Source of the DNA: Candidatus Hydrogenedentota bacterium
GTDB taxonomy: Bacteria; Hydrogenedentota; Hydrogenedentia; Hydrogenedentales; SLHB01
Length of the DNA: 64,000 nt
Assembly (NCBI GenBank): GCA_963745075.1
Contig: CAVUWV010000030.1
Location: 26,309-90,308, forward strand
Direction: 5' to 3'
Both the position numbers and the translations under genes were made by a program. Shown in pieces: positions 1 through 39,949 of this stretch (position 1 is its first letter; each line of letters begins with the position of its first letter). The notes under the pieces are model-generated. The model made no database searches. It was not told the origin of the DNA and saw nothing but the letters and a program-made list of their open reading frames with translations.

Positions 1-1002
1 CTGGATGCGAAGCGACTCGACGGGTTGCACGCGCACGGGGAGTTTTCGTTCGACGCATTCGGTGAAATGACGAACTTCCATGCGGTGGCCTTCCTGGACG
101 GGAAGCCAGTCGAACTTGGTGCTGGTGAGGGAACGGCCTTCGTAGCTGTATACCCCGGGGGGTTCCGTGGCGATCCCGGCCTTGTCGCCTAAGATGGAAA
201 TTCCACCGCGCTCTTCCGGGATGTTGGCCGCCCAGGAGACCTCGAAGGTCAGGGTAATGTCATTCTCAAAACGCACGTACGCGGAAGCGTAGTCTTCCAC
301 GTCGAATTCCTCGGGAGGGTAGGTTTCCCCCCACTCCCCGTTGCAGAGGTCTTCGCGGTCGCCGAACATCCGATACACCTTACCGGATGCAGCGACCGGA
401 CGGGGACTTCCCATAAGCCAGACCGCAAGGTCGAGCACGTGCACGCCGATATCGATGAGGGGTCCGCCCAAGGACTCATCGCGAAGGTGAAACTTGCCCC
501 AGCCCGGGATGCCGCGGCGGCGCAGCCATGTGGCGTTGGCGGAGTAAATCTGCCCGAGTCGCCCGGATTCGACGACCTCCTTGAGCTTTTCGCTCACGGC
601 CTCGAACCGCATATGCTGCCCGGCCATCAACTTCCGGTTGGCAGTCGTGGCGGCCTTGATCATCGTCCGGCACTCGGTGGCGTTCATGGCCATGGGTTTT
701 TCGACAAGCACGTGCGCGCCGGCTTTGAGCGCAGCGATCGTGAGGGGTGCGTGGCAGCGGTTTTGCGTGTAGACCCCGATGATGTCGTACGGCCCCTCTC
801 GGAGCATGCGCTTGTAATCGGTGTAGACGAGGCGGGCGCCATACTTCTCGGCCTTTTCTTCCGCGCGCTCCTTAATGATGTCGCACACGCCGATGAGTTC
901 GACGCGGCCTTCGGCCTCGAGCTCATGCCAATGCGGCAGGTGATAGCGCTCCGATGCGTCGCCCGCGCCGATAATTCCGACCTTCAACTTTATTTTGCTC
1001 AT
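1..1002 (-). CDS. Gfo/Idh/MocA family oxidoreductase (partial, 3' end runs off the window)
   Basis: Not in the ORF track. Manual translation from ATG at 1002 gives MSKIKLKVGIIGAGDASERYHL...HVLVEKPMAMN...GGPLIDIGVHVLD, with Rossmann GxGxxS, EKP and DxGxH motifs. The start overlaps the upstream stop (TAATG). Confidence 0.9.
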   Translation of the reverse strand, partial: MSKIKLKVGIIGAGDASERYHLPHWHELEAEGRVELIGVCDIIKERAEEKAEKYGARLVYTDYKRMLREGPYDIIGVYTQNRCHAPLTIAALKAGAHVLVEKPMAMNATECRTMIKAATTANRKLMAGQHMRFEAVSEKLKEVVESGRLGQIYSANATWLRRRGIPGWGKFHLRDESLGGPLIDIGVHVLDLAVWLMGSPRPVAASGKVYRMFGDREDLCNGEWGETYPPEEFDVEDYASAYVRFENDITLTFEVSWAANIPEERGGISILGDKAGIATEPPGVYSYEGRSLTSTKFDWLPVQEGHRMEVRHFTECVERKLPVRVQPVESLRIQ

Positions 1003-1832
1003 TAATGGTCCCCGGGAAGTATCGCTCTGTTGACCCGTTCATCCTGGTTGTCGCGAATCCCCCGATCGCGAACCGTTTCCGGTGCAGGCCCCAGCGAAAC
1101 ACGTGCGACGTAGGGCAGGTGATCGGACGCGACTCGCGCCACGGGGGTGTCGACAAAGCGGGATGATACGGCATTGATAGAGCCCGACACCAGCACGAAA
1201 TCGATTCGTTGGTCCGGCATCGAAGTTGCCGATTCTGCGGCGCCGAACGTGTCCCGGTAGCGCGTCAGTAGGATTGTGATGGCCGGCCCATCCGGTCTTT
1301 CGTTCAGATCGCCGGCAAGTATGGTGGGGAGGTCCCGCGCCAGGTCGACTACACGCGCGGCCTGCTCCTTGCGCGCTTGGGGAAGCAGGTCGAAATGCGT
1401 ATTGAGCACATCGATGTCCCGGCCGTCGACATTCACGACCGTTCGGAGACATCCGCGACGTTCGCCGCCTTCAACGAAGGGCAGGGAGAAGTTCGCTGAC
1501 TCGACGATAGGGAAGCGGGACAAGGTGCTATTGCCATAGGCGCCGCCTTCCAGATCGAGATTGGGTCCAAAGGCGTATTCCATATTCAAACGTTTGGCCA
1601 GTTCGGCCGGCATGTCGACGCGGTGCGTCCGGGCGCAATTGCGGTCGACTTCCTGGAGACATACGATGTCGGGCCGTTCGTCGGTAATGACAGTTGCGAT
1701 ACGATCCAGATCCAGGACGCCATCCGTGCCTTCGGCGTGGTGGAGGTTGTACGTTACTACACGAATCTCGGGTTCGGCCGAGAGCGGCAGCAACCCGGTT
1801 AGAAGCGACAGGGCGAGCGCGGTTCCGAACAT
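1002..1832 (-). CDS. Secreted endonuclease/exonuclease/phosphatase (EEP) family protein
   Basis: Motifs TYNLHH, LQEVD, NTHF, GDLN, RIDF, SDHLP; signal-peptide-like MFGTALALSLL. Start moved from 1892 to the ATG at 1832. Confidence 0.88.
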   Translation of the reverse strand: MFGTALALSLLTGLLPLSAEPEIRVVTYNLHHAEGTDGVLDLDRIATVITDERPDIVCLQEVDRNCARTHRVDMPAELAKRLNMEYAFGPNLDLEGGAYGNSTLSRFPIVESANFSLPFVEGGERRGCLRTVVNVDGRDIDVLNTHFDLLPQARKEQAARVVDLARDLPTILAGDLNERPDGPAITILLTRYRDTFGAAESATSMPDQRIDFVLVSGSINAVSSRFVDTPVARVASDHLPYVARVSLGPAPETVRDRGIRDNQDERVNRAILPGDH

Positions 1833-2397
1833 GATACGTTCTGTCCCCCAATTGTGGCTTGTATTCGTGATAATGCCGGTTGAGTGTATCATGGTTCCCT
1901 GGGTACGAAGGAGTTTCGGAACGGACGTTTTGCGGGGTCTGGTGCGGAGCCGTGCGCGTCTGGTGGGTGGGACGGTGTTTGTAAGTTGGGGTAAATAATC
2001 AGCTTACAGTTCTTCAGAATACGCACTTCCTGGCCTGGCGTCGTTTTGCGATTTGGGAGACCTCGAAGGCTTCACCGGTCGTGTAACAACGGGGGCGGAA
2101 AGTGGTATTACTACTAAGCAATGGGGAAGCATTGCGTGCATGGGAACAGGCAAGATTATACCAGATATAGATTGCGTTTTCGGAAATAGTGGTGTATACT
2201 GTGTCCCGCACGCTACATATAGTAGCTTATCTTTCCGACAGACGTATCTGGTGATACGGACGGATGAGATGGGGTCGTTGACCCGTTGTGCAGCGTCACG
2301 GTTTGTCAGTAGGAGGCGTTTGCGCTGGACGGCGGTTGGTTAGGCAGGACGAGTCTTACAAAACGAATCTGCACAAAAGGAAAAGGAGGTGACATTC

Positions 2398-2532
2398 ATG
2401 AAGCACATCAAGGCATTGACGAAGGTCGATCCGCGGATGGCCGCAGCCCCGACGGGTAAGTGCGACACCATTCTGAAGACGCCGGAAGAGAAGGATGCGA
2501 AGAAGGCCGAGAAGCAGAATCCGAGCAGCTAA
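2398..2532 (+). CDS. 44-aa small peptide MKHIKALTKVDPRMAAAPTGKCDTILKTPEEKDAKKAEKQNPSS
   Basis: Below the ORF-track cutoff. Strong SD AAGGAGGT shortly before ATG 2398; sits alone in a long intergenic gap; N-terminus resembles the peptide at 39842. Confidence 0.7.
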   Translation: MKHIKALTKVDPRMAAAPTGKCDTILKTPEEKDAKKAEKQNPSS

Positions 2533-2628
2533 CTTTCGGTTGTAATTTCCAGTCAGATTATTCCAGGCTGCGTCTCTTGCTCGAAGCGAGAGGCGCAGTC
2601 GTTTTTTGTGCGATTCACGAGGAACGGA

Positions 2629-39841: not shown

Positions 39842-39949
39842 ATGAAGCATCTGAAGACGATGTCGAAAGCGAAACGTCCCGCTCCGGCGGTGGTTTCGTC
39901 GAACCCGATCAAGGCGTTCCTGATGAAGATTAAGGGCTCGCCGGATTAA
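39842..39949 (+). CDS. 35-aa small peptide MKHLKTMSKAKRPAPAVVSSNPIKAFLMKIKGSPD
   Basis: Below the ORF-track cutoff. AAAGGAG RBS 8 nt upstream; N-terminus similar to 2398-2532. Confidence 0.68.
   Translation: MKHLKTMSKAKRPAPAVVSSNPIKAFLMKIKGSPD

Follow-up and report, generated by a model that had tools for sequence, protein, structure and literature searches.

A shared N-terminal leader links dispersed small peptide genes of Hydrogenedentota to a single cassette that probably processes them in trans

The 64,000-nt stretch of a Candidatus Hydrogenedentota genome that is analysed here, and called the window throughout, contains close to its 5' end a short open reading frame (ORF) at 2398-2532, the flagged ORF, whose product belongs to a family of small peptides with a conserved leader and highly diverse cores. 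We consider it probable that this peptide is a remote ("orphan") precursor of a processing system that is confined to the Hydrogenedentota, and that it is processed in trans by a cassette located on another contig (C20) of the same genome. The cassette is headed by two family members and encodes a relative of the SCIFF maturase ScfB/CteB, two GNATs, a CPBP-type protease and an ABC-2 transporter. As judged from the sequences, the general definition of a peptide that is synthesized by ribosomes and modified after its translation (RiPP), i.e. a leader followed by a core and a leader-recognising maturase in the genome, appears to apply. The features are compiled in Table 1. Coordinates refer to the whole window unless a contig or locus is named; the genome of the window is G000 (6.8 Mb), and C-, L- and G-numbers denote its contigs, fetched loci and genomes, respectively.

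The flagged ORF is a real, monocistronic gene under purifying selection. Orthologs are present in five of five genomes of the same genus, and the comparison of their six distinct coding sequences revealed 37 synonymous versus 8 non-synonymous codon differences in the leader (codons 1-15) and 40 versus 26 in the core (codons 21-37). This is reversed in the spacer, the five codons that follow the P-x-x-A motif, where 3 synonymous differences stand against 48 non-synonymous ones; AAPTG in the flagged ORF is replaced by QLNTS, QLSTS or ATNGA in orthologs. When the spacer is excluded, the differences distribute as 13:25:93 over the three codon positions, i.e. with a strong third-position bias. A hypervariable spacer between conserved flanks would suit a processing junction. 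The Shine-Dalgarno (SD) region (GGAGGTGAC) is identical in every ortholog, and the stem of the terminator is maintained via compensatory changes. The core motif [CA]D[TS][IF][LF]K[TS][PL]EEK is kept in other genera as well (L007, L056, L059, L067). Gene calling in one public Logan assembly has yielded exactly this 44-residue product, and among 5.8 billion predicted proteins we detected 10 relatives, none of which carries a name.

The initial annotation of the window, made by inspection of the sequence, had described a 44-residue ORF with an SD sequence at this position, preceded by about 500 nt of non-coding DNA. Its coordinates and its SD, which we place at 2383-2390, agree with our analysis, and the intergenic distance is 505 nt, counted from a minus-strand gene for a secreted Exo_endo_phos protein that starts at 1892 and is the nearest gene upstream. 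No gene follows downstream on the same strand. The promoter-like site at 2172-2200 was not called by a consensus promoter scanner, and its -35 hexamer has three matches out of six; its position in a block conserved between orthologous loci suggests that it may be the promoter of the flagged gene, which would give a 5' untranslated region (5'UTR) of approximately 190 nt. The predicted fold of this region leaves the SD free. A structured 5'UTR or riboswitch seems unlikely (z-score of the fold -1.98, SD not sequestered), and an Rfam search of positions 1800-2700 matched no family.

Members of the family in G000 were searched by a regular-expression scan and then by a leader hidden Markov model (HMM) applied to the N-termini of 318,201 short ORFs. 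The leader HMM recovered the flagged ORF with E=2.3e-7 and a second ORF of the window, at 39842, with E=1.9e-6, while the best match among reversed sequences had E=0.3. Thus, the resemblance of the two N-termini that the initial annotation had noticed is well founded, as is its observation that their C-terminal halves are unrelated. Both approaches together yielded about 17 members (E 1e-9 to 2e-6), all of which begin with ATG and are preceded by an SD-like sequence. Later searches added three candidates; in all, the scan proposed at the outset yields some 18-20 short ORFs of this kind in G000, and the family is conserved across the phylum. Scans of 10 members against Pfam and NCBIfam returned nothing meaningful at E up to 10, and a search of the PDB using the peptide gave no match. 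Several remote members possess individual sigma70-like promoters. The 300-nt upstream regions of the members contain neither a common motif nor a shared promoter motif of the extracytoplasmic function (ECF) type, and a shared promoter or an ECF regulon for the family was ruled out on this ground.

The properties of leader and core were derived from 77 unique peptides of the fetched loci; the frequencies are partly ascertained by the search pattern. The consensus of the leader is MKH[ILV]xx[ILMV][ST]Kxx(x)P[AV]xA. M1, K2 and H3 are invariant in all 76 MKH-type peptides, position 4 is occupied by I, L or V, position 7 by I, L, M or V and position 8 by S or T, and position 9 is K in 67 of the 76. 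The P-[AV]-x-A motif ends at residue 15 or 16 in 61/76 peptides. With a length of 15-16 residues, a net charge of +3.5 and a mean Kyte-Doolittle value of -0.41, the leaders lack the 7-15 hydrophobic residues of a Sec or Tat h-region, and they end with P-x-x-A and contain no G-G or G-A motif. The same leader precedes at least six unrelated core types, each of which is kept across genera: Pro/Val/Lys repeats, a two-Cys hydrophobic type, the type of the flagged peptide, HPxLIDSI...KDPxGTI and two Trp-rich types. The ortholog of the 39842 peptide in another genome of the genus reads MKHVKAVTKSQMPAKAVFSSNPIKAYLMMKKGSAD (L040). Lys is the commonest core residue (11.8%); Cys occurs in 16 of 71 cores, 10 of which have at least two. 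The layout postulated in the initial annotation, a conserved basic leader ending near P/A-x-A and a variable core, which it had likened to RiPP precursors or exported peptides, is therefore borne out by 77 peptides and at least six core types.

The leader family is restricted almost wholly to Hydrogenedentota. The leader start pattern was found in 25 of 41 relatives and in 77 of 135 genomes of the phylum, with up to 12 copies per genome within the genus of the window, and the backwards control gave one match overall. A composite pattern of SD, leader and P-x-x-A, applied to 596 Gb of sequence from 185,579 GTDB species, detected 44 stretches. About 38 of them are from Hydrogenedentota, including third-party annotation (TPA) records labelled 'uncultured Nitrospiraceae'; the remaining matches, in Streptomyces, Sphingobacterium, Halanaerobiales, the FCB group and one unnamed organism, correspond to the few expected by chance. 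As an aside, Hydrogenedentota-type loci are present in several public TPA_asm metagenome-assembled genomes (MAGs) titled 'uncultured Nitrospiraceae' or 'Nitrospirales' (L040, L044, L048, L062, L069 (CAZWDH01...), L039, L046, L064, L068), and these titles look wrong.

The link between the peptides and a processing machinery is provided by the cassette on C20. The cassette recurs with all six genes in unchanged order, headed by one to five tandem MKH peptides, in another genome of the genus (G003), in two distant, complete genomes (G039 and G035) and in a genome of another family-level lineage (G041), where the ScfB-like protein is 28% identical. In at least 10 genomes, the distance between the ScfB-like gene and a leader match is 4-6 kb. 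The ScfB-like gene is present as a single copy in 123 of 135 phylum genomes (83 of 86 high-quality ones), and the 12 genomes that lack it contain no true leader match; the two apparent exceptions are a match with an in-frame TGA and a match in a MAG that is 60% complete. The co-occurrence of leader and ScfB-like gene corresponds to a Fisher p of 0.0045, or 0.0005 when the stop-containing match is left out. Furthermore, an HMM built only from 13 leaders that stand beside the cassettes of other genomes ranks the 39842 ORF third and the flagged ORF seventh among all short-ORF N-termini of G000; at least 13 of its top 15 distinct matches are family members, and none appears in the reversed control. 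Two further candidates in G000 were seen with this cassette-adjacent HMM only, at C8:504684-504905 (+; MKHHRCISRRPAVATSA...) and C31:239797-239919 (+; MSNHLRCLSRKPKSAV...), the latter without an MKH start.

The two stand-alone GNATs of the cassette score 41.2 against Acetyltransf_4 (cut-off 24.3) and 50.6 against Acetyltransf_3 (cut-off 25.4), and the CPBP protein reaches 38.8 bits against PF02517 (cut-off 22.4). For the ScfB-like protein, the best NCBIfam matches are ScfB/SCIFF maturases, all far under their cut-offs (77.6 bits versus 425 for TIGR03974, i.e. ScfB itself, and 82.7 versus 855 for not_ScfB), and Pfam Radical_SAM does not match it. The SPASM model TIGR04085 is recognized with 41.3 bits (cut-off 27); just four conserved cysteines are present in this region (412, 415, 421 and 444; motif CRRCWARNLCGGGN). 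The only sequence match in the PDB is CteB (5WGG), which aligns with residues 6-174 to residues 24-192 of the ScfB-like protein. This segment covers the RiPP recognition element (RRE) and the start of the barrel, and the CNLRCKYC sequence of CteB lies opposite a Cys-free stretch. In nine ScfB-like orthologs, the conserved cysteines are limited to positions 42, 44, 47, 412, 415, 421 and 444, with none between 48 and 411; the ScfB-like protein is without the CX3CX2C motif of radical S-adenosylmethionine (SAM) enzymes. A profile search of the PDB with its last 169 residues retrieved only GNATs (best 2.8e-4).

The AlphaFold2 model of the ScfB-like protein has a pLDDT of 69.8 overall and of 85-95 in the barrel, and its predicted RRE consists of three strands (26-30, 33-38, 43-47) and three helices (49-57, 63-70, 76-91). 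In Foldseek, 5WGG is the top match of this model (E=7.5e-14, 482 aligned columns, target-normalised TM 0.66), followed by GNATs of about 170 residues of the SpeG and RimJ type (TM ~0.7). Sequence and model together describe the protein as a CteB homolog with a predicted RRE, a SPASM remnant and a C-terminal GNAT domain. When read from its first TTG, the ORF shares 58 nt with the end of the ABC-2 permease gene (C20:135606-135663), and comparison with G035 indicates that the conserved protein begins near Met20. Because of this conserved start, the in-frame stops seen in many orthologs are artefacts of alignment extension and not signs of pseudogenes. Split ScfB-like and GNAT genes behind such stops were considered and ruled out, as the stop in L094 lies upstream of the true start.

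In contrast to the cassette-adjacent peptides, most of the family is unlinked to processing genes. An all-vs-all BLAST comparison of the neighbourhoods of 17 members in G000 and of the members in L001-L077 revealed no processing gene found repeatedly next to remote members. The recurring neighbours are sulfatases, Ser/Thr-kinase-FGE fusions, GGDEF regulators and ECF sigma factors. Three sulfatase genes lie within 5 kb of the roughly 20 peptide genes of G000, a number near chance because this genome has 75 Pfam matches to sulfatases, corresponding to roughly 60 genes. About 16-18 of the roughly 20 precursors in G000, among them the flagged one, lie apart from the single cassette, and several of them carry promoters of their own; both points imply processing in trans. 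The initial annotation had noted that no modifying enzyme is adjacent to the flagged ORF and that any processing must be encoded elsewhere. The negative neighbourhood comparison and the cassette on C20, which encodes a protein with a predicted RRE, GNATs, a CPBP protease and an ABC-2 transporter and is headed by family members, are in line with both statements. Of the enzymes it had named as candidates, radical SAM proteins were found in part, in the form of a relative without the cluster motif, and C39 peptidase-containing transporters do not follow the distribution of the peptides across the phylum.

In the proposed pathway, the leader MKHIKALTKVDPRMA of the flagged peptide would dock onto the N-terminal RRE of the single ScfB-like protein. 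This step is modelled on CteA, whose 18-residue leader binds to the RRE of CteB as an added β-strand (PMC6231123). Since the radical-SAM cluster motif is absent, the ScfB-like protein probably acts as a scaffold that binds the leader. N-acylation of the Lys-rich core could then fall to its fused GNAT domain together with the two stand-alone GNATs; acylation of Lys or Orn side chains of RiPPs by GNAT maturases is known (PMC8784127, PMC13647313). The CPBP intramembrane protease, or another protease, would cut off the leader after P-x-x-A, and the ABC-2 transporter would export the product. In this way, a single cassette may handle some 20 scattered precursors whose cores are unrelated.

Several observations weigh against this reading. 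The flagged gene and the cassette are on different contigs, and no processing gene is found among the neighbours of the flagged gene. The likeness of the leaders spans only 15 residues, and the flagged ORF has an E-value of 0.21 with the cassette-adjacent HMM; as this is weak, the case rests on its rank and on the family context. The co-occurrence that underlies the Fisher values of 0.0045 and 0.0005 is phylogenetically non-independent, with most cassette-less genomes coming from one family. The cores, which include hydrophobic, Trp-rich and acidic ones as well as Pro/Lys repeats, differ too much for a common modification to be obvious. The SCIFF precursor model TIGR03973, run genome-wide at E up to 10, matches no member locus. 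Seven conserved cysteines remain in the ScfB-like protein, and a metal-dependent, non-radical chemistry is possible. Finally, CPBP and ABC-2 proteins also act as immunity proteins in bacteriocin loci, and the roles of the cassette proteins could differ accordingly.

Other explanations must be considered alongside processing in trans. The leader could be a tag for export and cleavage that works independently of the cassette; P-[AV]-x-A conforms to the -3/-1 rule of signal peptidase I. Remote peptides would then pass through general machinery, and the C20 cassette would act on its adjacent peptides alone. The end of the leader does resemble the c-region of a signal peptide, with Ala at -3 in 46/71 leaders, Ala at -1 and Pro at -4, the SKxxPAxA segment is tighter in remote members than in some cassette-adjacent ones, and the remote members have sigma70-like promoters of their own. 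Nevertheless, we regard this explanation as unlikely: a leader of this length and charge without an h-region makes Sec or Tat targeting implausible, the same MKH...SK.P..A layout is found on the cassette-adjacent peptides of other genomes, and cassette-less genomes lack the leader. Somewhat less probable still is that the peptides are uncleaved cytoplasmic or membrane proteins, in which the N-terminus is a partner motif or a metal-binding H2N-X-X-His site similar to the amino-terminal Cu and Ni (ATCUN) motif. A His at position 3 fits the ATCUN definition. The invariant Met1-Lys2-His3 in the 76 MKH-type peptides and the hydrophilic, not obviously antimicrobial core of the flagged peptide would agree with this, but five hypervariable residues after P-x-x-A with conservation on both flanks, variant leaders without His3 (see below) and the physical and phyletic association of the family with a cassette for an RRE protein, a protease and an exporter do not.

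That the peptides are akin to class II bacteriocins or microcins, exported and cleaved by an ABC transporter with a C39 peptidase domain, is very improbable. The leaders have the length of class II microcin leaders, about 15 residues without a hydrophobic core, and several cores are amphipathic or hydrophobic. They lack, however, the Gly-Gly or Gly-Ala motif, and strong full-length C39-ABC genes are concentrated in one part of the phylum (family f5/g34) that is nearly leader-free. G005, which is placed in the genus of the window and has 12 leader copies, has none of them, and G000 has just a marginal match of 257 residues (E=1.6e-4). C39/PCAT exporters (PF03412) were accordingly discarded as cognate transporters, their distribution across the phylum being opposite to that of the peptides. 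It is hardly credible, finally, that the flagged ORF is untranslated and part of a small RNA or a regulatory upstream ORF. The long 5'UTR (about 190 nt) with its conserved block and the short transcript with a terminator could be read in this way, but the third-position bias and the synonymous excess, the amino-acid-level conservation across unrelated loci with varied codons, the lack of an Rfam match, a fold z-score of only -1.98 and the absence of a downstream gene on the same strand argue for a translated ORF.

Table 1. Positions of the flagged gene with its signals, of the second family member in the window and of the C20 cassette.
Feature	Position	Strand	Description
Conserved 5' block 1	2158-2203		TATACCAGATATAGATTGCGTTTT...GGTGGTGTATACTGT; promoter-like, partly palindromic (TATAC...GTATA); kept in L017, L018 and L020
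Promoter-like site TTGCGT-N17-TATACT	2172-2200	+	Read from the sequence; inside a block conserved in same-genus orthologous loci
Conserved 5' block 2	2306-2335		GTAGGAGGCGTT..CGCTGGACGG
Shine-Dalgarno sequence	2383-2390	+	AAGGAGGT; 7 nt 5' of the flagged ATG
Flagged ORF	2398-2532	+	44 aa, MKHIKALTKVDPRMAAAPTGKCDTILKTPEEKDAKKAEKQNPSS
Leader, residues 1-15	2398-2442	+	MKHIKALTKVDPRMA; final motif is the family P-x-x-A
Spacer, residues 16-20	2443-2457	+	Hypervariable; immediately 3' of the putative cleavage site
Core, residues 21-44, and stop codon	2458-2532	+	KCDTILKTPEEKDAKKAEKQNPSS; hydrophilic, Lys/Glu-rich, one Cys
Intrinsic terminator, strong	2566-2607	+	16-bp stem (2566-2600), 3-nt loop, T-run; 3' of the flagged stop
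Second family member in the window	39842-39949	+	35 aa, MKHLKTMSKAKRPAPAVVSSNPIKAFLMKIKGSPD; leader MKHLKTMSKAKRPAPA and core VVSSNPIKAFLMKIKGSPD
Cassette peptides	C20:140377-140571 and 140120-140257	-	Two family members heading the operon
Cassette genes 3' of the two peptides, in order	C20	-	GNAT (190 aa), GNAT (276 aa), CPBP/Rce1-like protease (245 aa), ABC ATPase (346 aa), ABC-2 permease (267 aa), ScfB-like protein
ScfB-like gene	C20:133684-135663	-	659 aa, probably ~640 aa from Met20

Further observations concern individual loci. The flagged-type peptide gene and the gene for the secreted Exo_endo_phos protein form a divergent pair, 500-640 nt apart, in the window (1002-2532) and in L017, L059 and L067. 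The pairing is found within the genus and extends to a further lineage, whose enzyme is only 58-59% identical; the two genes may share regulation. Three tandem members on the minus strand of C17 (C17:124428-127624, L014) have, immediately upstream, genes for a 213-aa ECF sigma factor and a 523-aa zf-HC2 anti-sigma factor, and an ECF sigma factor is found near members in five loci in total (L014, L050, L051, L053, L071). Pro/Val/Lys-repeat cores, such as AKKPVKPKPVKPKSES, are polycationic with a period of three and are encoded in tandem arrays of 3-5 members (L013:8311-12024 in G003, BTVY01000001.1; L023, L044, L066), often beside sulfatase genes, which is near chance given the roughly 60 such genes in the genome.

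A member of unusual length, 145 residues, is encoded in a Hydrogenedentales MAG (L065:702-1139, +, JBHEKO010000200.1). It combines a MRHVKEVSKSKMPAVA leader and a short Pro/Lys core with a segment beginning SDRRLKRNV... and a Peptidase_S74 domain (Pfam E=1.4e-16), and is followed directly by a second family member and a sulfatase gene. Peptidase_S74 is a self-cleaving intramolecular chaperone of phage tail fibres. A variant leader without His3, MRRIK[SR][VIL]SR.PF...P.A.A, occurs in G000 at C9:115753-115932 (+; L029) and at C18:193492-193668 and 193755-193913 (+; L028). In both loci, the variants lie directly downstream of a gene for an M4 thermolysin-type protease (600 or 660 aa), and protease and peptide may represent a dedicated pair.

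Hydrogenedentota are uncultured bacteria that occur commonly in communities of wastewater, anammox reactors and sediments, and next to nothing is known of their biology. The peptides described here fall under no curated family, and no accessible paper was found that connects Hydrogenedentes to leader peptides; in the genus of the window, about 20 genes per genome lie outside curated protein families. The leader is not confined to the cassette and also marks many remote, stand-alone genes. As the present locus shows, the leader by itself can connect an unannotated small gene with no enzyme nearby to its probable processing machinery. We tentatively propose, as a possibility rather than a settled view, that these genes define an undescribed ribosomal peptide pathway, in which a former SCIFF-type radical-SAM maturase, now a radical-inactive scaffold fused to a GNAT, recognizes a 15-residue leader that in the genus of the window has spread to about 20 unlinked genes with unrelated cores, even to a fusion with a phage-type S74 domain, and in which the cassette acylates, trims and exports a secreted peptidome. 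If the GNAT chemistry is confirmed, the ScfB-like protein would be an example of a radical-SAM enzyme that is retained as a non-catalytic scaffold, the peptides would form a new family for annotation, and a naturally promiscuous, leader-guided peptide acyltransferase with a very short tag of 15 residues would be of interest for engineering lipopeptides or acylated peptides.

The logic of leader, RRE maturase, protease and exporter is known from RiPPs, while the enzyme make-up and the dispersed precursors with multiple cores are new. The closest relatives are the SCIFF or ranthipeptide systems (CteA or Tte1186a with CteB or Tte1186; 5WGG, TIGR03973, TIGR03974), in which the maturase is homologous to the central protein of the cassette. 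Shared features are an RRE-type N-terminal domain, the SPASM remnant and short precursors with a short N-terminal leader. The Hydrogenedentota protein differs by the missing CX3CX2C motif, by scores far under the family cut-off and by the C-terminally fused GNAT. SCIFF systems typically have a single adjacent precursor, whereas the Hydrogenedentota precursors are many and dispersed. The leaders of SCIFF precursors may likewise start with MKHIK. SCIFF precursors contain about six Cys within the C-terminal 45 residues (PMC8172795); the Hydrogenedentota peptides have no six-Cys core and are not recognized by TIGR03973 or PF13165.

Selidamides and other GNAT-acylated RiPPs (PMC8784127, PMC13647313) likewise have GNAT genes in the precursor cluster, and the Lys-rich cores seen here would suit side-chain N-acylation. 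Their precursors, however, are of the proteusin or Nif11 type with long leaders, a CteB-like scaffold is lacking, and acylation in Hydrogenedentota is putative. Double-glycine class II microcins and bacteriocins resemble the family in their non-hydrophobic leader of about 15 residues, their diverse small peptides and ABC export, but the Hydrogenedentota leader ends with P-x-x-A, and the linked transporter is of the ABC-2 type and accompanied by a separate CPBP protease. In the prochlorosins, one ProcM locus is combined with many dispersed ProcA precursors that have a conserved leader and hypervariable cores. The Hydrogenedentota system parallels this arrangement of a single maturation locus and many unlinked precursors with a conserved leader and hypervariable cores, while the lanthionine synthetase chemistry, the Nif11 leader and its length, and the phylum are different. 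Thus, one cassette that probably serves many dispersed substrates would represent a prochlorosin-like logic in a new phylum and with different enzymes.

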